From Nitrospirota bacterium (GTDB lineage Bacteria > Nitrospirota > Nitrospiria > 2-01-FULL-66-17): DNA of 64,000 nucleotides. Positions within the stretch are counted from its first letter, which is position 1, and each line of letters starts with the position of its first letter. The notes beneath the pieces were generated by a model, which made no database searches, was not told where the DNA came from, and saw nothing but the letters and a program-made list of their open reading frames with translations. Shown here one piece after another: positions 4,207 through 58,713 of this stretch. The stretch spans positions 80,656 through 144,655 of the forward strand of contig JBMOMD010000036.1 of the NCBI GenBank assembly GCA_049325295.1, in the 5' to 3' direction. The position numbers and the translations under genes were made by a program.

Positions 4207-6950
4207 CCATGCGCGCCATCGCGACAGCGCTGCTTGCGGCGGCGGTCGCGCTGGGCCACGGAAGGCCTGCGAATGCCGCCTCGGTCGACCCGATGCTCGC
4301 GCCGGTGTTATCCGGCCAGGCAACACCGTCGGCCCTGGGGTTGACCCCGCTCGGCGGCGCGACGGGCGCCGCCGCCGAACAGGATTCGTTGTTTTCGGTG
4401 AGCGTGCGGGTAACCGGTTCGCTCGACGAACTCCGAGCGCTCGGCATTCCGTTCGGCGGCGCGCTGGGCGACGTGGCCACCGCGGAAGTCACCGCCGCGC
4501 AACTTCGAATCTTGGCCGCCCACCCAGCGGTCCTATCCATTTCAGCGTCACGACCGTTGGCCCTGAACATCAACGCGAGCGTGCCGGATACCGGAGTCAT
4601 CACCGACCCCAATACGCTCGTCACGCAGCCCACCGTCCCCAACCCCTTTCGCCGCCACGACAATGGCGCGTGGAGTGACACCAGTTATACCGGCCGCGGC
4701 GTGCTGATCGGCATCATCGACACCGGGGTGGACCTCGCGCACGACGATTTCCTGAAACGCGACGGCGCCACGCGCGTGCTGGCGGTGTGGGATCAGTCCA
4801 GTTCGGTCGGTCGCCCGCCGCGAGGTTTTTCCTACGGCGCGGAATGTACGTCGGAACAGATCGATACCAGGGACTGTCCGCAGGTGGACCGTGATGGACA
4901 CGGCACCCACGTGGCCGGCATCGCGGCCGGAGACGGCTCCGCCACCGGTCGCGACCAACCGATCTTCCAATACATCGGGATGGCGCCCGAGGCGGATCTG
5001 CTCGTGGTCAAGTTGCGCTCGCAGACCACCACGCGCGTGATCGACGCCCTGGACTATCTCCACCGCAAGGCCGTCGCCCTGGAGAAGCCGATCGCCGTGA
5101 ACTTGAGCCTCGGCTCGCCGCTGGGACCCCATGACGGCACCACGGACCTGGAGCGAGCCATCGACGAGTTTACCGCGCGGGGCATCGTGCTCAGTGATCA
5201 AGCCCGGACCCTCGGCGCGGTCGTCGTGGTATCCGGAGGCAACAACGGACAATACGTGCCGCCGTCGCCCAACCCCAGCGACCCCACGCTCACGCCCGCC
5301 CCGGTCCCCTTGCACGCGGTCGGGTGTTTCCAAGCGGCGACGGCCTGCCCGCCCGGGATTACCGCGTTGTCAGCCGGTGCTCCGACCGCGGTCAGCTTCA
5401 ACGTACCGGGCGACAGTTCGCCGAGACCGGACACGACCAGCGTCACCCTCGACGTGTGGTATCCGGGGACGTCCACGCTTGGCGTGTCGGTCCAACACGC
5501 CACCCCCGGCTGCGGCGCAGGACCGGCGTCGCTGGCCGGCTCCGGATTCGTCAGCGTCACCACGCCGTGTGGCACGATCGTCATCTCCGCGGCGGACACC
5601 CAGAACAGTAACGGGGACCGCAACACTCAGGTGGTGATCACGCACGCGACGCGGATCACCCCCGGAGTCTGGACTCTGACCATCATCCCGGACTCGATCC
5701 CCGCCACCACGCGGTTCGACGTGTGGTCGGACGCCTCCCCCAGCGAGAACCGGATCGGCTTCAATAGCCTGCCCAGCGCCGCCACGACCATCGACTTTCC
5801 CGCTTCCGCGTCAGGGGCCATTGCGGTGGTCCCGTACATCACCAAGTTGTCCTGGACCTCGTTGGTTCCGGGTTGTTGCCAACTCGATCCGGCGCTCGGC
5901 AAAATCAACGGGCTCGCGACCTATGCCAGTCGCGGCCCGCTGAGACAATGCTCGCTGTGCGCGGTTCCCCCCCCGAAACCGGAGTTGGCCGCGCCCGGCT
6001 TGGCCATCATGTCCAGTTTCTCGTCGCGCATTTCCGGCACCTCGTTGTTGGACTTTCAGACCGATCCTGACCGGAGCCATTACATCCTGTCGGGATCCAG
6101 CATGGCCGCGCCGCACGTGACGGGCGCGGCGGCGATCCTGCTGCAAATCAACCCGTTGTTGACCGCTCAGGAGGTCAAGAACTACTTGATCAACAACGCG
6201 GTGCCGCCGGCCGGCAACGTGACCCCGCCGCCCACGCTCCCCGACACGCAGTGGGGAGCCGGCCGTCTCGCGATGCCCGCGGCGATCGCGGCCCTCCGGG
6301 CGACCGGCAGTGATCGCGTGCCCTCGTCGCCGGATGGTCTGCGCGTCACGTCGGTTCACAGCCGGCGGGTCGCGCTGGCCTGGGATCGGAGCGCCGATCT
6401 GGATTTGCAGACGTTTCAAGTGTTGCGTCGGGCCGAAGGGGACGCGGTGGCGATCCCGCTCCTCCCGTTCTTGAACCCGACCGTGACCACGTTCGAAGAT
6501 CCGCCGAATGCCAATAGCGTCCCTCCCGAGAACGACACGGTGTACTACTATTCCGTCCAAGCCGTGGACATCGCGGGCCAAGCCAGCGTCCTCACGCCGT
6601 CCGCTGAAATACGCGCCGTACCCAACGCGGGCGAAGGCTCGGTCGGGTTCTGCTTTATCGCGACCGCGGCATACGGCAGCGCCTGGCACCCCCACGTGGC
6701 GTCGCTCCGTCGGTTTCGCGACGAACGGTTGCGGCCCTTTGCGGCGGGACGAGCCGCCATCGCCGTGTATGAAACCGTGAGCCCGCCGATCGCCGCCTTC
6801 ATCGCGCCGCATCCCACGCTGCGCGCCATCACCCGCGGCGCGCTCACCCCGGTGGTCTTCGCCGTGGAATACCCCAGAACGGCGCTGGCGTGGATCAGCG
6901 TCTTTCTGCTCGGAACGGCCACGATCGTCCGTCGTCGACGTTCGGCTTGA
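4203..6950 (+). CDS. Secreted or membrane-anchored S8 subtilisin-family serine protease with propeptide, FN3-like domain and an unusual roughly 100-aa C-terminal anchor module
   Basis: Signal peptide MTMRAIATALLAAAVALG. Catalytic triad in D-H-S order: IIDTGVD, DGHGTHVAG, GSSMAAPHVTGAAAIL. FN3-like segment LRVTSVHSRRVALAWD...YYYSVQAVD. The C-terminus is GFCFIATAAYGS...LRRFRDERL, then two hydrophobic stretches and RRRRSA. The ATG at 4203 overlaps the secG stop (ATGA). The 3756 start given in the ORF track is rejected. Confidence 0.85.
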   Translation: MTMRAIATALLAAAVALGHGRPANAASVDPMLAPVLSGQATPSALGLTPLGGATGAAAEQDSLFSVSVRVTGSLDELRALGIPFGGALGDVATAEVTAAQLRILAAHPAVLSISASRPLALNINASVPDTGVITDPNTLVTQPTVPNPFRRHDNGAWSDTSYTGRGVLIGIIDTGVDLAHDDFLKRDGATRVLAVWDQSSSVGRPPRGFSYGAECTSEQIDTRDCPQVDRDGHGTHVAGIAAGDGSATGRDQPIFQYIGMAPEADLLVVKLRSQTTTRVIDALDYLHRKAVALEKPIAVNLSLGSPLGPHDGTTDLERAIDEFTARGIVLSDQARTLGAVVVVSGGNNGQYVPPSPNPSDPTLTPAPVPLHAVGCFQAATACPPGITALSAGAPTAVSFNVPGDSSPRPDTTSVTLDVWYPGTSTLGVSVQHATPGCGAGPASLAGSGFVSVTTPCGTIVISAADTQNSNGDRNTQVVITHATRITPGVWTLTIIPDSIPATTRFDVWSDASPSENRIGFNSLPSAATTIDFPASASGAIAVVPYITKLSWTSLVPGCCQLDPALGKINGLATYASRGPLRQCSLCAVPPPKPELAAPGLAIMSSFSSRISGTSLLDFQTDPDRSHYILSGSSMAAPHVTGAAAILLQINPLLTAQEVKNYLINNAVPPAGNVTPPPTLPDTQWGAGRLAMPAAIAALRATGSDRVPSSPDGLRVTSVHSRRVALAWDRSADLDLQTFQVLRRAEGDAVAIPLLPFLNPTVTTFEDPPNANSVPPENDTVYYYSVQAVDIAGQASVLTPSAEIRAVPNAGEGSVGFCFIATAAYGSAWHPHVASLRRFRDERLRPFAAGRAAIAVYETVSPPIAAFIAPHPTLRAITRGALTPVVFAVEYPRTALAWISVFLLGTATIVRRRRSA

Positions 6951-25472: not shown

Positions 25473-25964
25473 TTAATTGAGTTGCTCGATCGCCTCTTTG
25501 ACCAACCGCTTGGAATCCGCGTCGGTCAGGTTCCGGCGGATCACGCGCTCGGTCGCGGCGAGCACCAGATCCACCGCCTGCTCGCGCAGCTCCTTGCTCA
25601 GGCGCAGGCGCTCACGCGCGATTTCGTCGCGCGAAGCCGCGAGCGTGCGATCGGTTTCCTCTTTGACCCGGCGTTGCGTTTCGTCCGCGAGTTGTTGGCC
25701 CTGCTTACGCGCCTGATCCAACATGGCCGTGGCTTCCTGCTGCGCGGCTTTGAGCTTGGCCTGGTATTCCGCCAACAACTGCTCGGCCTCTTTGCGCGCC
25801 TGTTCGGCCTTGGCCAGGTTCTGGGCAATGGTGCGCTCGCGCGCGTCCAGCATCTCCGTGATCGCGGGAAACGCGTACCGCTTCAGCAGAAACAGCAGTA
25901 TCGCGAACGAAACCGCCGACCAGAACAGCAACGGGGTCAGAAAATGGGTGTCAAACTGAGGCAT
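25473..25964 (-). CDS. atpF: F0F1 ATP synthase subunit b
   Basis: Single N-terminal TM then a long charged coiled coil (AQNLAKAEQARKEAEQLLAEYQAKL...). Confidence 0.85.
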   Translation of the reverse strand: MPQFDTHFLTPLLFWSAVSFAILLFLLKRYAFPAITEMLDARERTIAQNLAKAEQARKEAEQLLAEYQAKLKAAQQEATAMLDQARKQGQQLADETQRRVKEETDRTLAASRDEIARERLRLSKELREQAVDLVLAATERVIRRNLTDADSKRLVKEAIEQLN

Positions 25965-25983
25965 GACGTTATTACTCCAGGAC

Positions 25984-26077
25984 GGAGAGCCTGTTCAGGA
26001 GCGCGCCAGATGCCAGGCGCCGCGAGCACCGGATGCGCAGCGGCAACGCCGCAGATGGCCGCTCATGGACGGGCTCC
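25984..26077 (-). repeat. Copy A (short variant) of a dispersed structured intergenic repeat; fills the atpE-atpF spacer
   Basis: It shares 5' CCAGATGC(C/A)AGGCGCCGC and 3' GCGGCAACGCCGCAGATGGCC...TCATGGAC(G/A)GGCT with the copies at 28578-28664 and 48283-48410. A closing stem is formed by GGAGAGCCTGTTCAGGA and TCATGGACGGGCTCC. It abuts the atpE stop codon. The strand is given as that of the flanking transcripts. Confidence 0.6.
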
Positions 26078-26307
26078 TATCCGCGCAGACCCATGATGAT
26101 GAACGCAATGACCAAACCATACAACGCGATGGCTTCCACCAGCGCGAACCCGATCCACATGTACTTGCCGACCTTGGCCTCGGCCGCGGGTTGCCGGGCC
26201 GTGGATTCGATCATTTTCCCGAAAATGTAGCCGATACCGATGCCCGCGCCGCCGAATCCCGCCGCCGCGATGCCCATGCCCAACAACGCCGCTGCCGATG
26301 CATCCAT
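26077..26307 (-). CDS. atpE: F0F1 ATP synthase subunit c
   Basis: Two TM hairpins with GIGIGYIFG and the conserved carboxylate helix. AAGGAG RBS precedes the ATG at 26307. The upstream extension in the ORF track is rejected. Confidence 0.85.
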   Translation of the reverse strand: MDASAAALLGMGIAAAGFGGAGIGIGYIFGKMIESTARQPAAEAKVGKYMWIGFALVEAIALYGLVIAFIIMGLRG

Positions 26308-26338
26308 TCGTGTTCTCCTTCTCGTCGTTAGCGACCGG

Positions 26339-27064
26339 TCAATGCAACTTGACCGCATCTCCGATATATACGCACGCCAAAATCGTAAAAATATACGCCT
26401 GAATAAACGCTACGAACACTTCGAGTCCGTAGATGGCCACGGTAAACCCAAACGGCAGTGGCTTAAGAAAGATCGGCGCGGTCATCATTAGCGAGAACAA
26501 GACTATCAAGATGATGTGCCCCGCTGTCATATTGGCAAAGAGTCGGACCGCCAAGGTCACGGGGCGCAATAAATGGCTAAAGAGTTCCAAGGGCACCATG
26601 AATGGCATCAGCCAAGCCGGCGTTCCTGGAGGCGTGAGGACCGACAAAAAATGGGTACCGTGAAGGGTGAAACCAACGACCAAACTGATGGTGTACACGA
26701 CCAGCGCAAAAAATCCGGTGACGATCAACTGGCTGGTAACCGTGTACGATCCGGGGATCAGACCCAACAGATTCGCAAAGAGGACAAAGAAAAACAGCGT
26801 GGCGATAAAGGGGAAAAACCGATTCCCCATTGGCCCCATATTATCCACCGCCAATCCTCGCAGAAATTCCACGGCAACTTCCGCGATGTTCTGCATTCGG
26901 CGGGGTACGAGGGTTTGGCCTCGCGTGGCCACATAGAAAAATAGAAACACCAACCCGCACGCGATCCACATCATCACGATCGCTTTATTGATCGAGACGT
27001 CGATCCCGAACAGCGAGAGCGGGATCCAGGGATGCAATTCAAAATGGTGAAGCGGGTTTTCCAT
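26339..27064 (-). CDS. atpB: F0F1 ATP synthase subunit a
   Basis: Five TM segments with the conserved Arg-containing helix LAVRLFANMTAGH. Confidence 0.9.
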   Translation of the reverse strand: MENPLHHFELHPWIPLSLFGIDVSINKAIVMMWIACGLVFLFFYVATRGQTLVPRRMQNIAEVAVEFLRGLAVDNMGPMGNRFFPFIATLFFFVLFANLLGLIPGSYTVTSQLIVTGFFALVVYTISLVVGFTLHGTHFLSVLTPPGTPAWLMPFMVPLELFSHLLRPVTLAVRLFANMTAGHIILIVLFSLMMTAPIFLKPLPFGFTVAIYGLEVFVAFIQAYIFTILACVYIGDAVKLH

Positions 27065-28447: not shown

Positions 28448-28577
28448 GATTTTGTTCTTTAGCGGCAGGCCTATAAACCTGCCGCAGAATTCATCCTGTC
28501 TTGTTCCGACTCCAAAATGCAGGGGCGGCCACGAAGGCCGCCCTAAGAGATTCGGTTCCTCGGGCGTCGAGAATGGG

Positions 28578-28664
28578 CCAGATGCAAGGCGCCGCAAGGA
28601 GGCCCGCCGGAGCGTACTGGGTCGTACGTGAGGACGGGCCGACGCAGCGGCAACGCCGCAGATG
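28578..28664 (-). repeat. Copy B (full core) of the dispersed structured intergenic repeat, in the bactofilin-mnmA spacer
   Basis: CCAGATGCAAGGCGCCGC ... GGCCCGCC-GGAGCGTAC-tgggtc-GTACGTGAG-GACGGGCC ... GCGGCAACGCCGCAGATG. The core hairpin is identical to copy C, but the outer stem differs and still pairs (GGCCCG/CGGGCC here, GCCTTGCG/CGCAAGGC in C). Confidence 0.65.
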
Positions 28665-28694
28665 ACCCGTTATCGGCGCCCGGCAGCGAACGAC

Positions 28695-29117
28695 CTACCG
28701 GTCGTTCGCTGCAATGGCGAGCGGCTCATGATCCACAATCATCTCCGGCCGCCCATCACTCTTCATCTCACACTGCCCGTTAAACCGCACGCCCGCCTCG
28801 ATCATCAGCACCGGCGTCTTGATGGAACCGCTGACCACCGCGGGATTGAGCAACTGCACCTTCTCGGTGGCGGTCACGTTCCCCGTGATCTTCCCGCCGC
28901 AGACCAATGTTGCGACCGACACCTCGGCGTCGATCACCGCGGTGTCTCCGACGATCAAGGTGCCGGTGGAGATGACTTCGCCTTCAATGTGTCCATCGAT
29001 GCGCACCGTGCCGTCGTACGTGACCACGCCTTTAAAACGCGTGCCTTTGCCCAAAAAGGCGATGATCTCGTCAGCAGCGCCGTTACGCTTGTCGCGGTCG
29101 TCTTTCTTCGTCAGCAT
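28695..29117 (-). CDS. Bactofilin (CcmA-like polymer-forming cytoskeletal protein)
   Basis: DUF583 beta-helical repeats (GTVRIDGHIEGEVISTGTLIVGDTAVIDAEVSVATLVCGGKITGNVTA). Its stop codon sits inside a perfect 12-bp hairpin (28684-28711). Confidence 0.8.
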   Translation of the reverse strand: MLTKKDDRDKRNGAADEIIAFLGKGTRFKGVVTYDGTVRIDGHIEGEVISTGTLIVGDTAVIDAEVSVATLVCGGKITGNVTATEKVQLLNPAVVSGSIKTPVLMIEAGVRFNGQCEMKSDGRPEMIVDHEPLAIAANDR

Positions 29118-45921: not shown

Positions 45922-46007
45922 TGGTGCGAGAGGGGGGACTTGAACCCCCACGGGGGTGACCCACCAGATCCTAAGTCTGGCGCGTCTGCCAATTCCGCCA
46001 CTCTCGC
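45922..46007 (-). tRNA. tRNA-Leu (anticodon TAG), type II with long variable arm, CCA encoded
   Basis: The reverse complement folds with acceptor GCGAGAG/CTCTCGC, anticodon loop ctTAGga, long variable arm and T-loop TTCAAGT. Confidence 0.75.
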
Positions 46008-46131
46008 ACGTGTTGCCGCCAACAAACCTTCGCCTTCCGATGGCGCGCCCGCCGGTCCCTTGGCGCGCCCCGTTCGCAAACAAGTGTGTTGTTCCCTGAT
46101 CTGCCGTGCCCGGCGGCCCTGCGGAAAGGGG

Positions 46132-46207
<76 letters not shown>

Positions 46208-46221
46208 ACATGTATCGACAA

Positions 46222-46297
46222 TGGCGCGCCTGGAGGGAATTGAACCCCCGACACATGGCTCCGGAGGCCATTGCTCTATCCGCTGAGCTACAGGCGC
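46222..46297 (-). tRNA. tRNA-Arg (anticodon CCG), CCA encoded
   Basis: Acceptor GCGCCTG/CAGGCGC, anticodon stem ATGGC/GCCAT, loop ctCCGga. Confidence 0.75.
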
Positions 46298-46494
46298 ACG
46301 TCTCTGCCCCACGTGGACGAGCGCTCGGGTGATGAACCCCGCCAAACCCTGCGCCAAGCGCCCCCGAAAAGCCCGCGTATTCTACCGGAGCCCGAAACGG
46401 TTTGTCAAAACCAAGCAGTGCTCGGCCGCGAAAAACGCGTGGCGTCCATCGCCGGGTTGACCCGCTCCGATCCACGGCTATCCTTAGGGCACCC

Positions 46495-47973
46495 ATGATT
46501 CCACAACCCGCCTCACCGCAAACGCTCCGCGAGCCGGTCGAACACGATCTGCGGCAAATTGAACGACGCGAGTGGCAGTTGTGGGCGCTCACGCTCACCT
46601 TGCTCGTGGCATCGGGCGGAGTCACCGTGCTCCTGGCGTACCTCCTCGCGCAGACCGAGTCCGATCAACCGAATCTGTCTCGGCTCATGGCCACGCGTGG
46701 ACTGCCGGGTTTGGTCGTCCTCATCGGCATCTTTTGCGCCTACGTGCTTCACACCCGCGCCACCTTCGGGCGGATGCGGATGCTTTTCCAGAAACAGGCC
46801 ATGCGCGACTCCCTCACCGGCCTGTTCAATCGCCGGTATTTCAACGAACGCATGGGCGACACCTTGCTCCGCGCCGATCACACCGAAGGAATATTCGCCA
46901 TCTTGTTGTGTGATCTCGATCACTTCAAAGCCTTGAACGATACCCAGGGACATCAGACTGGGGACGAGGTGCTTCAGGAAGTCGGTAAAGCCGTTCTGGA
47001 AGCCACGCGTGGAGCGGACTTGGTGGTCCGATGGGGCGGAGACGAGATTCTCGTCGTGCTCACCAGGACGACGCGCGACGGGGTGATCACCGCGGGCGAT
47101 CGCATCCGCAAAGGCGTCGCCCTGGTCGGGGAACGGCGCCGGATTCCGCTCGACGTGAGCATCGGCGCCGCGTTGCACCCCGAGCATGGTCGCACCATCG
47201 AGGACCTCGTCCGCCTCGCGGACCGCGCGCTTTATATCGCCAAACGCGGTGGGGACAAAATCCATATCGGGGAGGAAGAATACCAATTGGACGACCACAC
47301 GGTGCAAACCGTGTTTCAACCGGTGGTTGACCGAACGTCCGGCGAAGTGTTGGGTTATGAAGCGTTAAGCCGCGACCCCCTTGGCAAGCTCAGCGTCGGC
47401 GAGCTGTTCCGCCGGTATCAGGCGGTGGGACAACTCCACGAACTGAAGTGTTTGTGTTTCCACGTCCAGCTTCGGGCCGCCGCCAGCGCGGGGCTCCGGC
47501 GCGTCTTCATCAACGTAGATTTTGCCGTCCTCGATCACCTGCACGTCGTCCCCAAACCCCCCGATATCGAGGTGGTCCTGGAAATTTCGGAAGCCGAAGC
47601 CTTGCACGACGTGGAGCGCCATCTCGATACCACCAGCGCCTGGCGCGCCGCCGGCTACAAATTCGCGATCGACGATTTCGGCGCCGGGTTCATTTCGCTC
47701 CCCTTCGTGGCGCGTCTGATTCCGGATTACATCAAACTGGACCGCGCCACGATTGTTCAGGCCGGAGCGTCCCGCCAATTCTTGACGTTTCTCCGCGACC
47801 TCGTCCTCGCGCTGCGCAACTACTCCAAGGAAGGCATCATCGCAGAAGGGATCGAAACCGCGGACGAACTCCAGGTCGTTCGCGACCTCGGGATCAGCCC
47901 GGTCCAAGGCTACTTGGTGGGCAAACCCGAAGCGTTGAAGGCACCCGCGACTCGCGACCGCCGCGCGGCGTAG
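46495..47973 (+). CDS. Membrane-anchored GGDEF-EAL protein (c-di-GMP cyclase/phosphodiesterase)
   Basis: Two N-terminal TM helices, GGDEF domain (RYFNE...RWGGDEILVV) and EAL domain (EALSR...AIDDFGAGF...EGIET). The start is assigned to the ATG at 46495; the 46402 alternative is not excluded. Confidence 0.8.
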   Translation: MIPQPASPQTLREPVEHDLRQIERREWQLWALTLTLLVASGGVTVLLAYLLAQTESDQPNLSRLMATRGLPGLVVLIGIFCAYVLHTRATFGRMRMLFQKQAMRDSLTGLFNRRYFNERMGDTLLRADHTEGIFAILLCDLDHFKALNDTQGHQTGDEVLQEVGKAVLEATRGADLVVRWGGDEILVVLTRTTRDGVITAGDRIRKGVALVGERRRIPLDVSIGAALHPEHGRTIEDLVRLADRALYIAKRGGDKIHIGEEEYQLDDHTVQTVFQPVVDRTSGEVLGYEALSRDPLGKLSVGELFRRYQAVGQLHELKCLCFHVQLRAAASAGLRRVFINVDFAVLDHLHVVPKPPDIEVVLEISEAEALHDVERHLDTTSAWRAAGYKFAIDDFGAGFISLPFVARLIPDYIKLDRATIVQAGASRQFLTFLRDLVLALRNYSKEGIIAEGIETADELQVVRDLGISPVQGYLVGKPEALKAPATRDRRAA

Positions 47974-47996
47974 CGCGACTCGCGGAGAAGCCGCGG

Positions 47997-48073
47997 TGGT
48001 GCGCCTGGCTGGAATCGAACCAGCGACCCACAGCTTAGAAGGCTGTTGCTCTATCCGACTGAGCTACAGGCGC
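47997..48073 (-). tRNA. tRNA-Arg (anticodon TCT), CCA encoded
   Basis: Acceptor GCGCCTG/CAGGCGC, anticodon stem ACAGC/GCTGT, loop ctTCTaa. Confidence 0.75.
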
Positions 48074-48171
48074 GTGTGTCCAGGCAAAGACGAGGGGAGA
48101 GCGGGTGAGGGGGTGAAAAGAACGTTCGCCCATTCTCCCCGTCGCCCACTCACCCCGTCGTCTTTAAAAAA

Positions 48172-48248
<77 letters not shown>

Positions 48249-48282
48249 TCGTATCAGCCGACTAGTTTGTTCACGGCTCCCG

Positions 48283-48410
48283 GAAGCCTGTCCAGGGAAG
48301 GCCGGATGCAAGGCGGAGGGAGAGCCTTGCGCGCGGAGCGTACTGGGTCGTACGTGAGCACGCAAGGCCGACCGACAACGCCGCAGATGGCCTTTCATGG
48401 ACAGGCTTCC
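48283..48410 (-). repeat. Copy C (longest) of the dispersed structured intergenic repeat, in the rdgB 3' UTR
   Basis: A 13-bp closing stem (GGAAGCCTGTCCA ... TGGACAGGCTTCC) encloses CCGGATGCAAGGCGG...GCCTTGCG-cgc-GGAGCGTAC-tgggtc-GTACGTGAG-cac-GCAAGGC...CAACGCCGCAGATGGCC. The 3' half of the closing stem overlaps the rdgB stop codon. Confidence 0.65.
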
Positions 48411-49039
48411 AACCACGCCGCATCCGTGGTCAGCATATCACGAACCGCCGCCAACGCGCGCGCCCGATGGCTGACGAGATTTTTCTCGGCCTCGGACAGC
48501 TCCGCGAACGTGGCGTTGCGCTCGGGCAGTTCGAACACCGGGTCATAGCCGAATCCGCGGACGCCGGCCTCCGCGTCGCGAATCCGGCCTTCGACTGATC
48601 CCTCGAACAGGCGGGACGCGCCGGACGGGGAGGCCACCGCGATCACGCACCGAAACCGTGCGGTTCGCCGATCACACGGCACGTCCCTGAGGCGCTGCAA
48701 GAGCAGTCGGCGGTTGTCTCCATCAGTTGCCCCAGCGCCCGCGTACCGCGCGGACACCACACCGGGCGCGCCGCCGAGCGCATCGACTTCGAGCCCCGAA
48801 TCATCCGCCAACACCGGGAGCTGAACGCGCTGGGCCAGCGGCATGGCTTTCTTCAGCGCATTGGCCTCATAGGTCCGGCCATCCTCCTCGACGCCAACCG
48901 CCACGCCGAGGTCTCGCTGGGAAATGAACGTCCAGTCGAGGCCGCTCAGGAGCGTGGTGATCTCACGGATCTTTCCCGCATTGGTCGTGGCCACAACGAG
49001 CACGCGCCCGGCGTGTCGCGCGGTATTCAGCGCCATCAA
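48395..49039 (-). CDS. rdgB: Non-canonical purine NTP pyrophosphatase (dITP/XTP; RdgB/HAM1 family)
   Basis: TTNAGKIREI, ADDSGLEVDALGGAPGV, GFGYDP motifs. Paired with rph as in many bacteria. Confidence 0.85.
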   Translation of the reverse strand: MMALNTARHAGRVLVVATTNAGKIREITTLLSGLDWTFISQRDLGVAVGVEEDGRTYEANALKKAMPLAQRVQLPVLADDSGLEVDALGGAPGVVSARYAGAGATDGDNRRLLLQRLRDVPCDRRTARFRCVIAVASPSGASRLFEGSVEGRIRDAEAGVRGFGYDPVFELPERNATFAELSEAEKNLVSHRARALAAVRDMLTTDAAWLEACP

Positions 49040-51153: not shown

Positions 51154-54100
51154 TCACGCGGCCTTTGATAAACCACTTGCTACCGGAAGGACCACCGTGA
51201 ACTCCGCGCCCTGACCCGGCTCGCTGCGCACATCGATCCGGCCTCCGACATCCTGAATAATCTGATAACTGACCGAGAGCCCCAACCCGGTCCCTTTGCC
51301 CACGGGTTTGGTGGTGAAAAACGGCTCAAACAGCCGTGCCATGTGCTCGGGTTTGATGCCCGGTCCCGAATCCCGCACCGAGACGGTCACCGTGTGCTCA
51401 TGATCCCGCGATTCGACCCAAATCTCTCCGGTCGCGCCGATCGCCTGAACCGCATTTTGAAGCAGATTCATCCACACCTGGTTGAGTTTACCAGGTACCG
51501 CGAAAACCGCCCGCGTCGACTGCAGATCGGCGTGGACCACCAAACCCCGTCCCGCCATCGGGTGGATCAGGCTTAACGTAGATTCCAATCCGTCTTGCAC
51601 CGAGCACTCGATCTTCTGATTCTGATCCTTTCGGACAAACGCCTTCAGTTGACCGACAATTTCTTCCGTGCGCGTCACGCCGTTCTTCACGATTCCCAAT
51701 GACGCGTCCACGTCTTCTACGGAATCAACCGGCGTCCGGTCCTGGGGTAACAACGGCTTCAATTCCGCCCAGGCCCGCTGCAATACGATAAGACTATTCT
51801 TGGCAAAGCTGATCGGGTTGTTGATTTCGTGCGCCATGCCCGCGACCAACAGGCCGAGGCCGGCCATCTTCTCAGATTGAACCAACTGCGCCTGCGTATT
51901 TTTCAGTTCAGTCAGCGTCGCCTCCAACGCCTCATTGCGCTGTTGAATCTCCCGCTCCAATCGACGCAGCTCCAACAGCGATTTGATCTTGGCTCGCAGC
52001 TCTTGGGCGTTGAACGGTTTGGTCAAATAGTCGTCGGCCCCGTGCTCCAATCCCTCGATCTTCATCGCCATGTCGGCGCGAGCCGTGAGCAAGATAATCG
52101 GGATGTGCTTGGTCCGCTCGTCCCCGCGAATCGCTCGACACAACTGATACCCATCCATCTCCGGCATCATGACATCGGAAATAATGAGGTCCGGGAGTGC
52201 CTGGACCGCGACACCAACGCCCTCTCGACCGTTGGACGCCTTGAGCACCCGATAGTCGCCCTGTAATTCAAACGCGATGAACTCACGCATGTCCGGGTTG
52301 TCTTCGACGATCAAGACCTGTCGACCATTAGCGGGAGAGAAGCTCGGCTCGGGCGCGACCGTCGGTTCCGTTGACACCCCGCTTAGATGCCGCTCCGCGG
52401 CAACGTGCAGTTCGCGGGTCCAATCGTTCGTCGGTGCGGCTCCATCCGACTCCTGAGGAGCTTGCTCCTCAGTGGACTCATCGTGAGGCGCTTCAAGGAG
52501 CAACGGCAGCGTCACCGTAAACGTCGATCCACGCCCGGGTTCACTGTTCACGTTGATCCGCCCACCGTGAAGCTCCACGATTTCCTTCGCAAGGGCCAAG
52601 CCGATACCCGTTCCCTCATACCGGCGACTCGTCGTAGCGTCCACCTGTGAAAATCGCTTGAACAGTTTCGGTAAGTCGCTTTCTGAGATGCCGATACCCG
52701 TATCCATGACCTGCACCTGAAGCTGTCCCTCCGCCGACCGTCCCCATCGAAGGGTGACCCGGCCACCAGAGTTGCTGAACTTGATTGCGTTAAACAGCAA
52801 GTTCAAGACGACTTTTTCCAAACGATCGGGGTCGAAATACGATCGCTCCGGCAACTGCGACGCTTCTTCGCCAATTAGCTCGATGTGCTTTTTCTCGGCC
52901 ATCGGTGCAACCGAGGCGATGAGTCCACGAAAAAATGCCCCGATGTCTCCTGGCCGAAACTGTAGTTTCATGCGGCCCGCATCGAGTTTCGTGAGGTCGA
53001 GCAAGTTGTTGATTTGTTTGAGTAGGCGTAAACCATTCTGGTGCATTACGGACACATGCCGTCTCACCGACTCCGGAAGCGGTGTACCCTCTTCTTTGAT
53101 CAGGGACTCAAGCGGTGCAAGGATCAACGTGAGCGGCGTTCGCAACTCATGGCTCACCGCAGCGAAGAACTTAGTCTTCAACTCGTCCAACTCTTGGAGC
53201 TTTCGATTCGAGTCCTCAAGCTCCTGCGTCCTAAACTGAACCTTCTGTTCGAGAGAGTCATATAGCAACGAATTCTGGACGGCGATGGTAGTTTCAGCTC
53301 TTAACGCCAACAGAAAGTCGAGATCCAAACGGGTGTATCGGCTCAGATTCTCCTTCTCTCCGAGCACAATGACCCCAATCAGAGTCTCTTCATTCGTCAG
53401 TGGCATCGCGACTTGCGCATGGTGACGGATAAAGAACGGTTGATAGGCCGCCGGATCATCACTTTGAACGACACGCTGATTGGCCGCTATACGCTCCAAA
53501 AAGGCCTGCTCCTCTCCGGTAAATCCTCCCTCCCTTGTACGTAGGAATCGCGTGTCTTTGACATAAAGAGTCTCTCCTATGGTCCGGAGGGTCCGTGTAA
53601 TCAGTTCTCCAAAGCTCTTAATTGCCGAGATTTCCTGGACGAAACGCTGCAATTCATCCAGCATATCGAACTTCCGTCGCTGAAAATAGTGATCGACATA
53701 CGGCTGTACAACGCGGGCATACACGAGCATCAGTAGCAAGAGGGTGGCGAGAATGATATAGCTCGCTACTGGATGACTAAGGAGCCACGACCGGAGCCCC
53801 GCGAATAGCGCGACGATGGGAACGACTACAATCGCCGACGTCGCAAGCCAGAGCGCCGTCTTATGAACGACGGTTTTCACATCAAATGCGCCGTGCTGAA
53901 CAATTGCAAATCCCAGGATAGCGGTATATCCAATTTCAAAAATATAATAAAAAGGAGGCCCAGCCGATCCAATAAGGAAGACAAAGAGCGCATATAAAAT
54001 CACCGCCGTGAACCCGAGCCCGAAAGCAAAAAGCATGTATTGTAATTGAACGCGTTTTGTTCCAGTGCTTGATCGATATAGTGTGATTAGGCGATACGTT

Positions 54101-54555
54101 CCATAAGCGACTCCAAAGAGAAGATACAACGCAAAGAGTGGAAATGCCGGCCCAGGAATTTCGAGCATTGATGTTTCTGCGAACTGCAGATCCGACACAA
54201 CAAAGGGAGTCAGGACAAGAATTGCCATGAAAGGCGTGGCAACACTTAGAATTCTTCGAATATTCTTTGGAGGGGTCTTCTCCTCGCCGAGGGCACAATA
54301 AAAGCAAACATTGAAATAAACGAAAAAGACGCCGCCTAAAAACGATATTCGGTCTAAAGTGAGGGCCAGAAGATCGGGTCGACCGTAGAGTATGAGGAGA
54401 TCGCTCGCGTTCCAGAACGCGACAGACAAGTTAAACAAGCCAAAGTTTCGATTAATAGAATTCCTGTGGTCCTTCGACCAAACAAAGAGACCTGACGTCG
54501 CACATGAGACGAGACCTGCGATCGCAAAGGCGATTCGAACGTCAACTGGGGACAT
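51154..54555 (-). CDS. Large hybrid sensor: N-terminal multi-TM (about 7-8 helices) domain, GAF, HisKA/HATPase, REC, then a second HisKA/HATPase
   Basis: TM region 1-290. GAF. H-box AAVSHELRTPL with G-boxes. REC (LIISDVMMPEMDG). Second H-box GMAHEINNPI with second G-boxes (DSGPGI, GTGLGL). The 5' third of the gene is visibly lower in GC. Confidence 0.85.
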   Translation of the reverse strand: MSPVDVRIAFAIAGLVSCATSGLFVWSKDHRNSINRNFGLFNLSVAFWNASDLLILYGRPDLLALTLDRISFLGGVFFVYFNVCFYCALGEEKTPPKNIRRILSVATPFMAILVLTPFVVSDLQFAETSMLEIPGPAFPLFALYLLFGVAYGTYRLITLYRSSTGTKRVQLQYMLFAFGLGFTAVILYALFVFLIGSAGPPFYYIFEIGYTAILGFAIVQHGAFDVKTVVHKTALWLATSAIVVVPIVALFAGLRSWLLSHPVASYIILATLLLLMLVYARVVQPYVDHYFQRRKFDMLDELQRFVQEISAIKSFGELITRTLRTIGETLYVKDTRFLRTREGGFTGEEQAFLERIAANQRVVQSDDPAAYQPFFIRHHAQVAMPLTNEETLIGVIVLGEKENLSRYTRLDLDFLLALRAETTIAVQNSLLYDSLEQKVQFRTQELEDSNRKLQELDELKTKFFAAVSHELRTPLTLILAPLESLIKEEGTPLPESVRRHVSVMHQNGLRLLKQINNLLDLTKLDAGRMKLQFRPGDIGAFFRGLIASVAPMAEKKHIELIGEEASQLPERSYFDPDRLEKVVLNLLFNAIKFSNSGGRVTLRWGRSAEGQLQVQVMDTGIGISESDLPKLFKRFSQVDATTSRRYEGTGIGLALAKEIVELHGGRINVNSEPGRGSTFTVTLPLLLEAPHDESTEEQAPQESDGAAPTNDWTRELHVAAERHLSGVSTEPTVAPEPSFSPANGRQVLIVEDNPDMREFIAFELQGDYRVLKASNGREGVGVAVQALPDLIISDVMMPEMDGYQLCRAIRGDERTKHIPIILLTARADMAMKIEGLEHGADDYLTKPFNAQELRAKIKSLLELRRLEREIQQRNEALEATLTELKNTQAQLVQSEKMAGLGLLVAGMAHEINNPISFAKNSLIVLQRAWAELKPLLPQDRTPVDSVEDVDASLGIVKNGVTRTEEIVGQLKAFVRKDQNQKIECSVQDGLESTLSLIHPMAGRGLVVHADLQSTRAVFAVPGKLNQVWMNLLQNAVQAIGATGEIWVESRDHEHTVTVSVRDSGPGIKPEHMARLFEPFFTTKPVGKGTGLGLSVSYQIIQDVGGRIDVRSEPGQGAEFTVVLPVASGLSKAA

Positions 54556-54653
54556 ATTGACTGGTTACCGCATACACCGCACTGCACCCTTGCCTCACCG
54601 GGACCAACCGAGCTCCCCTTTCCCGCATTATCAATTATTAACTGCCGCATGAA

Positions 54654-56294
54654 TTATAGCAGGCCGTTCAAAGACTCAACTGTTTCAAAAAGAGGAGTGC
54701 CTCTCATTTCATCGAACGCCTGTAGCGCTCTCTCAATGTCGTCCGACGAATGCGCCGCTGACATCGTCAGCCGTATGAGGGCTTCGCCTCGTTTCACGGC
54801 AGGGCGAATAAACGTATTGACGTGAATGCCGCTTTTTTCAAGTCGTTTAGTCATTTCGTACGCGACATGTTCATGCCCCACTCGTATCGCAATAATGGGA
54901 GACTGCCCACCGACTGGGTGGTACCCCAGCGCCTCAAGGCCGGATTTCATAGTTGTGACATTTAACCAAAGCCGCTCCCTTAGATAGCGTTCCGTACGAA
55001 TAATCCGCAGCGCGGTGAGGGCACCAGCCGCCATCGCTGGGGGTAATGCAGTCGTAAAGATAATACCTCGGGACATGTGCCGCAGGTAATCCGACAGATG
55101 CTGTTCACAGGCTATAAATCCGCCGGGGCTCGCGAGTGCCTTGCTGAACAGCCCCAGGTATATATCTATCTGGCCCTCGAGGCCAAAGTGTTCCGCTGTC
55201 CCCGCGCCAGTCGGGCCAAGGAGTCCGAACCCATGTCCGTCATCTAGCATAATCGGGGTTCCGTTTGCCGTCGCTATGGCCTTTATTTCAGGGAGTGAAC
55301 CGAGATCTCCATGCGTGCTGTAGACGCCCTCCACCAAAATCAATGTTCGGGGGGTATCGACCTTGAGAAGCTTCCTCTCAAGATCTTCCGCCGAATTATG
55401 GCGAAACCGTAAGAGCGTGGCTCCGCTTGCCACGCAGCCGTCTATCATACTTGCATGAACCTTTTCGTCAGCCACCGCGGCGTCTCCTTTTCTCAGGAGA
55501 CACGAGAGAACAGCGAAGTTTGCGAGGTATCCGCTCGGGAAGACAAACGCTGCCTTGGCACCTACAAACTCTGCCAGTTCCGCTTCCAGTTGTTCGTGGA
55601 TAGGGTTCGTGCCGTTGACCGCGCGCGAGCCTGTCGCATGGGTTCCATACTTGCGTACAGCCTGAATGACGGCTTCTTTGACGCGGCCGTCATGCGATAA
55701 ACCAAGGTAATCTTTTGACCCAAATGACACCAGCTCGCGACCATCCATGATGACGCGCACCGCAGAGATCCCCTCGCTGCGCCGGCAGACCGTCGAAATC
55801 TGGTCCCACGCATGCGCCCGGGCCGCAAATGCAATCGACTCGGCAAAGATGTCCGCCTTTCTCCGTCTCTCTCGCAACCTCTTATTCTCGATGCCAGTGG
55901 CATCCAGCAGCCGTCTCTCCGCTTTACGACGGCAACGCATCAGTCCTGGGGATAAGCCGCTTATAAATGTATGGACCTTTCGCCGACCATCCTCTTCAGG
56001 AAATGCAATTTCCCCACCATATGCCATCGTATTCGGGTCGACACCTTGCCTATGAAGAATTTTGATCCTCACATGAGCCGAACGGCTATCAGGCAAAATA
56101 AGGTCCGCTTCTTCTTCAGTCTGGTCAAAGCCAGGTCCCATTCTGAAGGTAAGACCATATCGGCCGATGTTCCAGACTTGTCCGGTAATCTTCGTACCCG
56201 CAACGCCGGTCATTCGCACCATCACAGGAACAGGCATGTGCTCGACTCCATATCGAGGATGCCTGCGTCTCTGAAACGTGAGCTGAGATTCCAA
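54654..56294 (-). CDS. PilZ-like N-terminal domain fused to a class-II PLP-dependent alpha-oxoamine synthase (BioF/Kbl/SPT/CqsA family)
   Basis: The N-terminal roughly 140 aa have RRRHPRY (RxxxR) and a degenerate DxSxxG (NIGRYG). The AOS domain has FGSKDYLGLS, the PLP-lysine context STHGDLGSL...GLFSKAL, and glycine-rich loops. It lies 98 nt upstream of the hybrid HK on the same strand. Confidence 0.8.
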   Translation of the reverse strand: MESQLTFQRRRHPRYGVEHMPVPVMVRMTGVAGTKITGQVWNIGRYGLTFRMGPGFDQTEEEADLILPDSRSAHVRIKILHRQGVDPNTMAYGGEIAFPEEDGRRKVHTFISGLSPGLMRCRRKAERRLLDATGIENKRLRERRRKADIFAESIAFAARAHAWDQISTVCRRSEGISAVRVIMDGRELVSFGSKDYLGLSHDGRVKEAVIQAVRKYGTHATGSRAVNGTNPIHEQLEAELAEFVGAKAAFVFPSGYLANFAVLSCLLRKGDAAVADEKVHASMIDGCVASGATLLRFRHNSAEDLERKLLKVDTPRTLILVEGVYSTHGDLGSLPEIKAIATANGTPIMLDDGHGFGLLGPTGAGTAEHFGLEGQIDIYLGLFSKALASPGGFIACEQHLSDYLRHMSRGIIFTTALPPAMAAGALTALRIIRTERYLRERLWLNVTTMKSGLEALGYHPVGGQSPIIAIRVGHEHVAYEMTKRLEKSGIHVNTFIRPAVKRGEALIRLTMSAAHSSDDIERALQAFDEMRGTPLFETVESLNGLL

Positions 56295-56441
56295 AGGTCC
56301 TCCTTATTCTCGACTTCTCTAGAAACGCACCACCCGTGTTACGGCTCTCGTCGCTCTTTTTTGTATCGCAACTGATCTTCTGGGCGCTTTACTTGCTGGA
56401 AGCCTGTGATATGTTGATTGCGTTCTCTTCGGGAGGATTCC

Positions 56442-57692
56442 ATGAGTCGGTTATCTTGCCTACGACTATTCATCGGATTCGCGTTAGCGCCCGTAATCGT
56501 CATGAGTGTAACTTCCGTCACGGCCTATGCTGGCGCATTTGCTATCGATGAACAGGGGACAGCGGCGATGGGGCAGGCTAATGCGTTCGCTGCGCAGTCC
56601 GATGATCCGAGCGCGCTCTTCTACAATCCGGCGGGAATTGGGCAACTTCAGGGGACGCAAGTTAGTTTAGCGACAACTCTAATCGCCCCCTCCACCACCT
56701 TCGAGAACGCCGGTTCAGGACAATCTACCAGTACCAATTCAGTGTTATTTTATCCCACGACCTTTTACGCTGTCCACGAAATTAGTAACGCTCTACACGT
56801 CGGTCTCGGCGTATTTACACCATTTGGACTGTCCACGGAGTGGCCCTCGGATTGGGAGGGCCGTTATGTAACGACGTTTTCCGAAATCAACACGTATTAC
56901 TTCAATCCCAATATAGAATGGAGCCCCGGCCCACGGCTTCATCTGGCCGTTGGAATTAGTTATGTTCCGTCGTCTGTGACGTTCAGGAACAAGCTTGACC
57001 TCAGTAGCATCCCATTGCCGGATGGCGAATCCGAGGTCACGGCAGACGGAGACGGGTGGGGCTACAATTTAGCCGCACTCGCGACCCTTCCCGGGGAAAA
57101 TACCATCGGCGTCTCGTTCCGCAGCGCGGTGAAAATCGATTATTCTGGAGACGCAACGTCTGAACCCTCTGCGGTTCTTGGACCTCCGCAAGCCGTCCGT
57201 TCATCGCTAACTTTACCCCCTATGCTGACGGTCGGCGTCGCCAATCATACGATTGAGGCCCTCACTCTAGAGGCAGACCTCCAATGGGTGGGGTGGTCTA
57301 AAATCCAGTCGATTGATATCGACTTTGTGAATCCCGCAGCTCCAGATGTCACCACGGTGTATAACTGGCAGGACAGCTATTCGCTCCGGTTCGGAGCCGC
57401 GCATTCGATCGGTCCGGTGACGTTGCGAGCCGGCTATGCCTATGACATCAGTCCAGTTCCACCTGATACGATCGATCCCTCCATACCGGACTCCGATAAA
57501 CACGCCTTCACGCTTGGGGGAGGGTACCGCCTTGGAAGGACGACGATCGATATGGCGTATATGTTCATTCGCTCGAACGATCGGAGCGTCGACAATACGA
57601 TTACACCTGTGGCGGGACCACCGTTCAGCCAGCAAGGCAAGTATTCGGCGCGAACTCACGAACTGGGCATCGGCGTCACGTACCGCTTTTAG
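56442..57692 (+). CDS. FadL/TodX/OmpP1-family outer-membrane hydrophobic-compound channel
   Basis: Signal peptide, the N-terminal hatch motif GAFAIDEQGTAAMGQANAFAAQSDDPSALFYNPAG, and the beta-barrel C-terminus ...GIGVTYRF. GGAGG RBS. Confidence 0.75.
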   Translation: MSRLSCLRLFIGFALAPVIVMSVTSVTAYAGAFAIDEQGTAAMGQANAFAAQSDDPSALFYNPAGIGQLQGTQVSLATTLIAPSTTFENAGSGQSTSTNSVLFYPTTFYAVHEISNALHVGLGVFTPFGLSTEWPSDWEGRYVTTFSEINTYYFNPNIEWSPGPRLHLAVGISYVPSSVTFRNKLDLSSIPLPDGESEVTADGDGWGYNLAALATLPGENTIGVSFRSAVKIDYSGDATSEPSAVLGPPQAVRSSLTLPPMLTVGVANHTIEALTLEADLQWVGWSKIQSIDIDFVNPAAPDVTTVYNWQDSYSLRFGAAHSIGPVTLRAGYAYDISPVPPDTIDPSIPDSDKHAFTLGGGYRLGRTTIDMAYMFIRSNDRSVDNTITPVAGPPFSQQGKYSARTHELGIGVTYRF

Positions 57693-58665
57693 TTGAATCC
57701 GCCTCGATCGCCTCGATTCTTCGCTGTATACGGTTCATCCCTTCGTCAAATCCGACCGTCGGCTCCCACCGTAACTCCATTCTAGCCCGTTGATTCGAGA
57801 AGTTCTGAGAGGTGCCCAACAACTCTACTGACATCCGGGTCAGCAGAGGGCGGGAGGATTGTTTCCGGACCGCGCCCCAAGCTTCCAACGCCCATCCTGC
57901 GGTATATGCCACCCGGTAAGGGATCTTCGCGCGAACAGGTTTGAGCCCCAACATCATGGCTAATCGATCTGCAAACTCTTTCCACGTTACGCCGAGTCCG
58001 TCTTCGATGTTGTAGGCACGTCCCACTCCGTAAGCCGGTCGGCCAGCCAAGAGCAGCGCAGCAACCAAATTGTCTACGTGGCACAATCCAGCATCGGTGT
58101 TTCCCTTTCCGATGAGGACCATCTCTTTTCGTTTAAGCAGGTTTACGATCTCCGTGACGACTGGCGCTCGATGTCCGTACACGGTCGCCGGGCGAATTAC
58201 CGTCGTGGGCAACCCGCGGCCCGCGAATTCCCATACCAGCTTCTCGGCATCGATCTTCGTGTCTCCGTAGGGCCAACCGCGATACCGAAAGGGAGCGTCT
58301 TCAGTCACGCGCTGTCCCGGATAGCCGTAGATATCAGTGGTGCTGACATGAACGAATTTCGCGACTCCGAGCGCAGCTTCCAGGATGTTTTTAGTGCCAG
58401 TCACGTTGACGCTCCGGAAGATCGCTGGATCACCCCAGTCGGAAACCACCGCAGCACAGTGGAAGACCCTGTCGACGCCTCGGACAGCATCACGAACACT
58501 CGCTGGGTCCGTGATATCACCGATGCATCGTTCTGCTTGTGGCGACACCCAGTGCAGGTTACTCGTGGGGCGAACCAACACTCGCACCTGGTCTCCTACA
58601 TCAATCAACGCATCGACCAGGTGTGAGCCGATGAATCCAGAGGCCCCTGTCACCAGGCTCCTCAC
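57676..58665 (-). CDS. NAD-dependent epimerase/dehydratase-family SDR (extended SDR; 3-beta-HSD-like)
   Basis: Rossmann motif VTGASGFIGSHLV, catalytic Y...K (YGDTK). Its 3' end overlaps the convergent FadL gene by 17 nt. Confidence 0.8.
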   Translation of the reverse strand: MRSLVTGASGFIGSHLVDALIDVGDQVRVLVRPTSNLHWVSPQAERCIGDITDPASVRDAVRGVDRVFHCAAVVSDWGDPAIFRSVNVTGTKNILEAALGVAKFVHVSTTDIYGYPGQRVTEDAPFRYRGWPYGDTKIDAEKLVWEFAGRGLPTTVIRPATVYGHRAPVVTEIVNLLKRKEMVLIGKGNTDAGLCHVDNLVAALLLAGRPAYGVGRAYNIEDGLGVTWKEFADRLAMMLGLKPVRAKIPYRVAYTAGWALEAWGAVRKQSSRPLLTRMSVELLGTSQNFSNQRARMELRWEPTVGFDEGMNRIQRRIEAIEADSTKSGT

Positions 58666-58713
58666 GATTGTCGTCCGCAGAACGAGTGGATGTCCCGTTT
58701 CATACGTTGTCAG

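Follow-up and report, generated by a model that had tools for sequence, protein, structure and literature searches.

What are the three structured intergenic segments that lie beside the ends of minus-strand genes in a 64,000-nt stretch of a Nitrospirota bacterium contig (JBMOMD010000036.1, positions 80,656 to 144,655; hereafter the window)? A preliminary description of this DNA proposed a dispersed family that could be REP-like (repetitive extragenic palindrome), MITE-like (miniature inverted-repeat transposable element) or a small RNA (sRNA) derived from 3' untranslated regions (UTRs). Based on comparisons with related loci, a search of species-representative genomes and a covariance analysis, we consider it likely that the copies are decayed, MITE-like non-autonomous transposons of 105-190 nt (~280 nt in some lineages), with the transposase encoded elsewhere. 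This reading is carried by the insertion itself, the target duplication, the terminal repeats, the multiplicity of copies, the lack of a linked protein and a strand-specific fold maintained at the level of the family. The REP-like option fails on length, on having terminal inverted repeats (TIRs) as well as target-site duplications (TSDs) and on the missing GTAG signature, and the sRNA option is disfavoured by the evidence below.

The three copies, A to C, and their ends are placed as follows.

25969 to 25972, no strand: left flank of copy A, TTAT, the putative duplication partner of CTAT, from the alignment of filled and empty sites
25973 to 26076, plus strand: copy A, a 104-nt long hairpin between atpE and atpF (-63.9 kcal/mol, z -4.9; 55.8 bits)
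26006 to 26058, plus strand: conserved core of copy A, CCAGATGCCAGGCG ... CAACGCCGCAGATGG
26077 to 26080, no strand: right flank of copy A, CTAT, whose CTA is the atpE stop TAG in reverse complement
28543 to 28561, plus strand: left side of copy B as read from the sequence, CTAA (28543-28546) followed by the 15-nt extension GAGATTCGGTTCCTC
28562 to 28681, plus strand: copy B, a hairpin in the bactofilin 3' UTR (-77.8 kcal/mol, z -6.6; 73.7 bits)
48262 to 48281, plus strand: left side of copy C, CTAG (48262-48265) followed by a 16-nt extension, laid out as in the related locus L077
48282 to 48410, plus strand: copy C, a hairpin between rdgB and a tRNA gene (-87.4 kcal/mol, z -6.8; 68.7 bits)

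All three plus-strand intergenic segments with a common core are indeed present (25973-26076, 28547-28681 and 48266-48410), although the hairpins are longer than first described, spanning approximately 25973-26076, 28562-28681 (plus 28547-28561) and 48282-48410 (plus 48266-48281); the interval 28578-28664, initially put forward as the repeat, is the core of the copy B hairpin. Each copy folds as an imperfect hairpin of 100-130 nt, with z-scores of -4.9 to -6.8 for the plus strand, and the reverse strand folds clearly more poorly for copies A and B. There are exactly three occurrences of CAACGCCGCAGATG in the window (26044, 28651 and 48376), and the combined pattern GATGCMAGGCG..CAACGCCGCAGATG gives three matches compared to none in 100 shuffles. 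The 24-nt apical hairpin GGAGCGTACTGGGTCGTACGTGAG is identical in copies B and C, as originally claimed, with zero occurrences expected, and the outer stems GGCCCG/CGGGCC of copy B and GCCTTGCG/CGCAAGGC of copy C differ and yet pair in the folds. A covariance model, described below, matches only copies B, C and A in the 64-kb window (73.7, 68.7 and 55.8 bits), the next best hit scoring 12 bits. The ends said to be common to all copies require adjustment for copy C, which begins with CCGGATGC rather than CCAGATGC and has CCGACAACGCC at its 3' side. Likewise, the CAGATG hexamers that had been regarded as flanking direct repeats pair with each other (C-G, A-U, G.A, A.G, U-A, G-C), and are therefore part of the stem and not a target or flanking duplication.

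The window copies are imperfect members of their family. Copy A is without the apical hairpin, and comparison with L067 makes it look as if this part was lost by deletion between GCACCGG repeats. All three carry 5' extensions of 12-16 nt. By analogy with L077, L115 and L007, CTAA together with GAGATTCGGTTCCTC is the probable left end of copy B, the right end of which is degenerate; copy C resembles L077 (CTAG, 26 nt, hairpin, CTAG), with no matching CTAG at the right side of the element. Adjoining the degenerate right end of copy B is a perfect 13-bp palindrome, GCAGCGAACGACC-TACC-GGTCGTTCGCTGC (28683-28712), which holds the bactofilin stop in its loop; the final 13 bases of the coding sequence recur in mirrored form behind the stop.

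How did copy A come to separate two genes of the ATP synthase operon? In four related loci (L121-L124; AtpF 96, 93, 87 and 80% identical), the gap between atpE and atpF is 3-12 nt and copy A is absent from all, whereas the window junction holds ~109 extra nt. On the gene strand the junctions of copy A read ..GGATAG/GAGCCC...GGAGTA/ATAA/CGTCATG, which fits a 4-bp duplication of ATAA, one copy of which has become ATAG. This alignment of sequences establishes copy A as a lineage-specific insertion, and it speaks against an element conserved by cell need, i.e. a structured RNA with a function for the host (for example an sRNA from a 3' UTR, or an element regulating in cis), which we regard as improbable. 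One of the relatives without copy A (L124) has another copy upstream of the atp operon, at 2491-2657, in the spacer that separates atpI from a GGDEF/EAL gene, and independent insertions around this operon have therefore taken place.

Orthologues of copy B bear on the same alternative from both sides. Copies with a retained hairpin follow bactofilin in L127 (94% identical protein) and L129 (82%), as would be expected if the host needed the structure. In L128 (bactofilin 89%), on the other hand, the orthologous stretch has decayed to a sequence without core or fold (z -0.01), while the adjacent canonical terminator is conserved; individual copies are dispensable, since this orthologue was lost. 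In L129, a short phage-integrase SAM-like fragment lies downstream of mnmA (4435-4677) and is absent from the window at the matching place.

The ends of better preserved relatives define the target. YTAR on both sides together with a TIR of at least 11 matches in 14 positions was found for 18 of 105 copies, compared to 0 in five mismatched-flank controls, in which the left flank of one copy is joined with the right flank of another. Well-preserved relatives have identical 4-bp flanks, namely CTAG (L021, L022, L047, L098, L115, L117 and L118), TTAG, CTAA and TTAA (L053 and L062). Among these, TTAG/TTAG (L007, L102) and CTAA/CTAA (L009) are not palindromic, as illustrated by the 141-nt element of L102, ttag/CAGGCTGCTCAAAAAGG..CCTTTTTCAGCAGCCTG/ttag. 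The TIRs of intact relatives begin with GAG or CAG, e.g. GAGGCTGTTCAAAAAG. These features also weigh on an element of the REP/REPIN or IS200/IS605 type, which an HUH (Y1) transposase would mobilize in the form of folded single-stranded DNA. Such elements make no duplication, carry a conserved 5' GTAG tag that is missing here, and are 20-40 nt rather than 100-280 nt long. In favour of the HUH explanation are a strand-specific hairpin in which G.T is tolerated and A.C avoided, tandem G.A pairs, which are stable in DNA too, and a core that is better conserved than the ends. We nevertheless hold it to be improbable, at about the level of the host RNA or slightly below; no transposase is present among the 25 commonest Pfam families of flanking open reading frames (ORFs), no protein cluster recurs, and the two hairpins of symmetric copies described below lie on opposite strands, unlike the ends of IS608. 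A REP/REPIN identity is ruled out by length, by TIRs and TSDs and by the same lack of a transposase among the commonest neighbouring families, and an IS200/IS605-derived element (PATE; no TIR or TSD, a one-sided tetranucleotide) by the presence of the same 4-mer on both sides together with TIRs.

Why, then, do the copies sit at stop codons? The preliminary description noted that all of them follow stops in one orientation. Adjacency to stops holds in the window and beyond, with two amendments. First, the rdgB stop is not immediately upstream of copy C but within its 3' arm. Second, the single orientation does not extend to the family. For 38 of 123 copies, the opposite strand has a long open frame whose stop lies 16-29 nt behind the core (mode 19), at the end of the 3' arm. 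Same-strand frames terminate 44-75 nt ahead of the core, the site of the left duplication in mapped copies (L007, L009). Stops thus abut both ends of the element, and therefore both orientations relative to neighbouring genes occur, a further point against a host RNA. The adjacency itself is explained by the target, because YTAR contains TAG or TAA. As TAG and TAA targets would be rare in GC-rich DNA except at gene ends, and intragenic insertions would be purged by selection, surviving copies would pile up at stop codons, and the target duplication would regenerate the stop. Tandem and partial copies found side by side (L045, L101, L119) would likewise be expected if every insertion restored a target at its ends.

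The elements are non-coding and 104-286 nt long. Two size classes are apparent, with cores of ~62-66 nt and ~82-87 nt. In the long class the minimal element is the hairpin itself, the arms serving as terminal repeats; many copies have an extra 10-45 nt at the 5' side, starting with a weaker copy of the repeat (L115, L007, L088, L077), and we infer that these extensions are remnants of earlier copies. Short-class elements have the same core and other terminal repeats. The Streptomyces form is ~190 nt, and gammaproteobacterial, acidobacterial and verrucomicrobial forms are ~280 nt and two-fold symmetric, consisting of repeat, hairpin 1, a small tetraloop hairpin, hairpin 2 and repeat, where hairpin 2 repeats hairpin 1 in inverted and weaker form, the two lying on opposite strands. 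The core is hence a subterminal module, with the motif strand running 5' to 3' inward from each end.

The proposal of a dispersed multi-copy family is borne out by further copies in many other genomes. A pattern scan of species-representative genomes (GATGCNAGGCG..AACGCCGCAGATG, comprising 23 fixed core bases and one anchoring G in the variable gap) returned at least 119 loci. From 35 long-class copies we built a covariance model, with which 130 non-redundant copies were recovered, spread over 100 loci; 29 of these copies are outside the exact search pattern. The core, with its 23 identical bases, is found in genomes labelled as ~20 phyla, taxa being given by record label: NC10/Methylomirabilota, Nitrospirota, Acidobacteriota, Desulfobacterota and relatives (including Geobacter and Syntrophales), Myxococcota, alpha-, beta- and gammaproteobacteria, Actinomycetota (Streptomyces), Bacillota, Bacteroidota, Chlorobiota, Kapaibacterium, Planctomycetota (Kuenenia), Verrucomicrobiota, Lentisphaerae, Omnitrophota, Rokubacteriota, Binatia, Gemmatimonadota, Spirochaetota, Melainabacteria and Minisyncoccia. 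Carriers are mostly metagenome-assembled genomes (MAGs), and isolates include Pseudomonas sp. BN411, Halopseudomonas pachastrellae, Guyparkeria hydrothermalis, Geobacter sp. AOG1 and several Streptomyces. A single match was obtained in 2.9 million viral contigs. In plasmid BLAST searches the Streptomyces type was present in 40 plasmids, unannotated and in no case beside transposases; copy C and the gammaproteobacterial type gave no match. Copies are dense, with three per 64 kb in the window and three to four per 8 kb in L081, L006, L017, L045 and L055. This number of copies per genome beside unrelated genes again disfavours a host-level RNA function. In L081 (2206-5979), from a Bacillota MAG, four copies in the same orientation are spaced every ~1.2 kb, apparently one behind each gene of a cluster.

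A search of the window and 18 loci against Rfam 15 (4227 families) at the gathering threshold yielded only tRNAs, RNase P and the unrelated Acido-Lenti-1, and permissive scans yielded only generic miRNA-precursor hairpins. The Rfam comparison suggested at the outset therefore identifies no family for the element, and both this and the lack of a promoter-like site in or near the window copies count against a host RNA. The Acido-Lenti-1 RNA (RF01687, 53 bits) lies in a Terriglobia MAG (L093, 3324-3369), ~3 kb from an element, probably by coincidence. A search of the accessible literature, ISfinder not included, yielded no described family with these features.

What is maintained in the family is foremost the core. 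Standard pairs make up 92.4% of the cells in the alignment versus 68.6% after shuffling, which upholds the covariation in the stem, and double-sided changes are seen in 35 of 39 pairs; the alignment is model-derived, i.e. fitted to the covariance model. Sliding the partner by 1-3 columns lowers pairing to 27-42%. Paired columns contain 257 G.U versus 67 A.C, G.U leading in 21 columns and A.C in 3 where the counts differ. G.U cells are often inherited within subfamilies, and the count therefore represents fewer independent events than it suggests, while the sign of the bias is consistent across columns. The motif strand is the more stable one in 105 of 115 copies (mean gain 9 kcal/mol), and for the best copies the model scores the reverse strand at 26-40 bits versus 120-130 bits for the motif strand. 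The invariant core, 5' CCA-GA-UGC-AA-GGCG ... CAA-CGCC-GCA-GA-UGG 3', has tandem G.A pairs, AA and CAA bulges, and unpaired nucleotides that are conserved between variable helices; in copies that were not chosen by pattern, AAGGCG...CAACGC is the most stable part. It is the core and not the terminal repeats that is better conserved, and its maintenance is confined to one strand. We rejected a small ORF, as the core lengths (51-93 nt) show no three-nucleotide periodicity and no ORF is conserved.

Strong covariation, strand-specific tolerance of G.U and conserved unpaired nucleotides are what a host-functional RNA would display, and the compensatory changes had been taken as evidence of function at the RNA level. 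This does not follow here, considering that the elements are insertions, that one orthologue is unfolded and that both orientations occur elsewhere. In addition, the best-folding strand in the window is antisense to all flanking genes, and host mRNAs therefore carry the version that folds more poorly. In L003, L011 and L025 (Pseudomonas) and L115 (Peptococcaceae), a copy directly follows an ORF ending in ..MRHFRH* or ..FRHFKH*, which we read as purH from the C-terminal motif alone. In favour of a host role, the copies after this gene in the three Pseudomonas lineages are orthologous and show stem differences in which T-A is doubly changed to C-G. Domains of purD (GARS) among the neighbouring ORFs may represent the gene adjacent to purH.

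Could the hairpin instead act on transcripts as a mobile, strong and partly bidirectional terminator or mRNA-stabilizing structure, and the MITE persist for this reason? The inner GC-rich stem is preceded by A4+ and followed by T4+ in 41 of 81 long-class copies, and even where the GC content of the locus exceeds 0.64 a T4+ run is found in 12 of 20; the hairpins are very stable and directly behind stop codons. The window copies, in comparison, have no U-tract and are not scored as terminators, copy A is located within the atp operon, where termination would be harmful, and copy B is upstream of a separate, conserved canonical terminator. Furthermore, the A-tract also belongs to the terminal repeat, and termination has no need of the conserved G.A, AA and CAA loops. 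We judge this role to be rather unlikely, if less so than a host RNA or an HUH element, and it would add to the MITE-like reading rather than replace it. Integron attC-like recombination sites share imperfect palindromes of similar length, a strand-specific fold and a position downstream of ORFs. The alignments have no RYYYAAC/GTTRRRY core sites, which effectively refutes this identity, and the neighbours are housekeeping genes and operons rather than cassettes, no integrase is found among the 25 commonest flanking Pfam families, and the element is present in Streptomyces and Bacillota; we give attC sites almost no credence.

Which protein moves the elements? Flanking ORFs, scanned with Pfam for 132 neighbours, match 183 families and are unrelated housekeeping genes. 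No transposase, reverse transcriptase or integrase is among the 25 commonest of these families, and all-versus-all clustering of the flanking ORFs revealed no recurrent neighbouring protein cluster. Two candidate full-length elements were rejected, as the gene between the inward-facing copies looks, from its translation, like an arginine decarboxylase (speA) in L052 and like a SWIB-type protein in L043.

We propose that the MITE-like elements are mobilized in trans by a DDE transposase that cuts YTAR with a 4-bp stagger, in the manner of the IS5 group or of the IS701 family. The folded core would be a cis-acting module needed by transposition-competent master copies, our best guess, held with low confidence. 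Since single copies decay and the consensus of the family nonetheless persists, it is probably on the master copies that the core is constrained, and not on the host, which probably does not need the core at each site. As reader of the hairpin, we would first consider a mobilizing machinery that recognizes the folded single strand; second, an end-proximal leader or terminator hairpin from the parent insertion sequence (IS), seen by transcripts reading inward from both ends; and third, a role as terminator or stabilizer at the level of the host.

Several points weigh against this proposal. The window copies are without clean TIRs and TSDs, copy A having TTAT/CTAT and copies B and C having YTAR on one side only. 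The CTAG and TTAA flanks of relatives are palindromic and so readable as an extension of the stem, and an unbiased test for any identical 4-mer flanks is confounded by palindromic tetramers in the stem. No autonomous IS with matching ends was recovered in the flanking ORFs, between inward-facing pairs or on the Streptomyces plasmids, which is weak evidence, because this search space is small. An ordinary MITE does not fully explain a core common to ~20 labelled phyla and, to our knowledge, strand-specific folding is not a requirement of DDE transposition. Finally, the ends CAGGCTGCTC, GAGCCCGTCC and TGTGGTG.. do not fit the IS701 consensus ---YACT-Y--YR, although the 4-bp duplication agrees (PMC2266710).

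It is possible, and we put this forward tentatively, that the core (50-90 nt, with G.A, AA and CAA elements around a GGCG/CGCC helix and a variable apical stem) is an uncatalogued structured single-strand module, which a conserved trans-acting factor may recognize, be it in RNA or in extruded single-stranded DNA. If true, this would imply a transposition system in which a folded hairpin is read in place of the terminal repeats, or else a non-coding RNA (ncRNA) hitch-hiking on MITEs, and either would explain a core that is near-constant across the labelled phyla while the transposon ends diverge. Finding what reads the hairpin could reveal how a very successful non-autonomous element is mobilized. 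The family also offers a ready account of a class of 'conserved structured intergenic motifs', which ncRNA screens that rely on covariation will go on reporting.

In the window, all flanking genes are on the minus strand, as atpE/atpF, bactofilin/mnmA and rdgB/tRNA pairs.

25473 to 25964, minus strand: atpF, ATP synthase b subunit, with GGAG from the end of copy A 10 nt before its ATG
26077 to 26358, minus strand: atpE, c subunit of ATP synthase (orthologous loci match Pfam ATP-synt_C), its stop codon abutting copy A
28511 to 28543, minus strand: canonical intrinsic terminator GGGCGGCC..GGCCGCCC followed by CTGCATTTTG, just past copy B and kept in relatives
28695 to 29117, minus strand: bactofilin gene, upstream of copy B
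48395 to 49039, minus strand: putative rdgB-like ORF ending in ..WLEACP*, its 3' end running into copy C (name taken from the preliminary description)

The insertions have left marks on their neighbours. AtpE and AtpF are probably translationally coupled in relatives, as their genes are only 3-12 nt apart there. In the window, the GGAG preceding the atpF start codon originates from the left extension of copy A (25973-25985), and we infer that it now serves as the ribosome-binding site of atpF. The 3' arm of copy C (48395-48410) supplies rdgB with its five final codons (LEACP) and its TGA stop, and the native C-terminus appears, as judged from the sequence, to have been replaced through the insertion. 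For the annotation of the window, the copies are selfish insertions, one of which split the atpE-atpF junction and another of which rewrote the last rdgB codons. The window AtpF and bactofilin are 96% and 100% identical, respectively, to Nitrospirota MAG proteins. Elsewhere in the window, five minus-strand tRNA genes occupy 45925-48245, the outermost being 37 nt (48246-48282) from copy C, and the region 52001-60000 has a G+C content of 0.54-0.57 compared to 0.59-0.68 in the remainder and may be acquired DNA.

How do the elements compare to known systems? IS5 subgroups use a YTAR target, have GAG- or GG-type ends and are of wide phylogenetic spread, and we know of no member of the IS5 group or the IS701 family with a conserved subterminal hairpin of 60-130 nt. 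The two share the 4-bp target duplication with our elements as candidate mobilizers, and differ in that no full-length element with these ends and core was found. For IS701, duplications of 'exactly four bps' and a widespread phylogenetic distribution have been described (PMC2266710). REP/REPIN-RAYT systems are similar in having extragenic hairpins, compensatory stem changes and selection on a folded single strand; REPs, however, are 20-40 nt long and tagged with GTAG or CGTC (PMC3733652), are species-specific and without duplications, and are tied to a RAYT gene. Intrinsic (bidirectional) terminators have in common an A-tract, a GC-rich stem and a U-tract, as in about half of the long-class copies, whereas the stem of the element is 5-10 times longer, has conserved internal loops and continues past the U-tract, and the window copies are without tracts.

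The closest kind is the bacterial MITE, like Correia, ERIC, Nezha and Chunjie. Chunjie of Geobacter uraniireducens is similar in its related environmental lineage, its undisruptive insertion in an operon and its very stable RNA fold; it is A+T-rich and measures 178-235 bp, its TIRs being 21 bp and its direct repeats 9 bp in length (PMC3184786), and the 9-bp repeats and the AT-richness rule out that it belongs to the present family. In a survey of 1.4 million bacterial MITEs, 97.4% were genus-specific and no cluster at 95% identity was of mixed phyla (PMC11602168), a comparison that is indicative only, because clustering at 95% would miss a shared core. The elements resemble Correia (Neisseria) and ERIC/IRU (Enterobacteria) in being non-coding and ~100-200 nt long, with TIRs, a short TA-containing target duplication, many dispersed copies and long hairpins, and in lying in transcribed spacers by gene ends and being tolerated in operons. 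They differ in that the target and duplication are the 4-bp YTAR rather than TA, and in that, while known MITEs are largely genus-specific (PMC11602168), the core is here the best conserved part, is distributed over ~20 labelled phyla and pairs on one strand.

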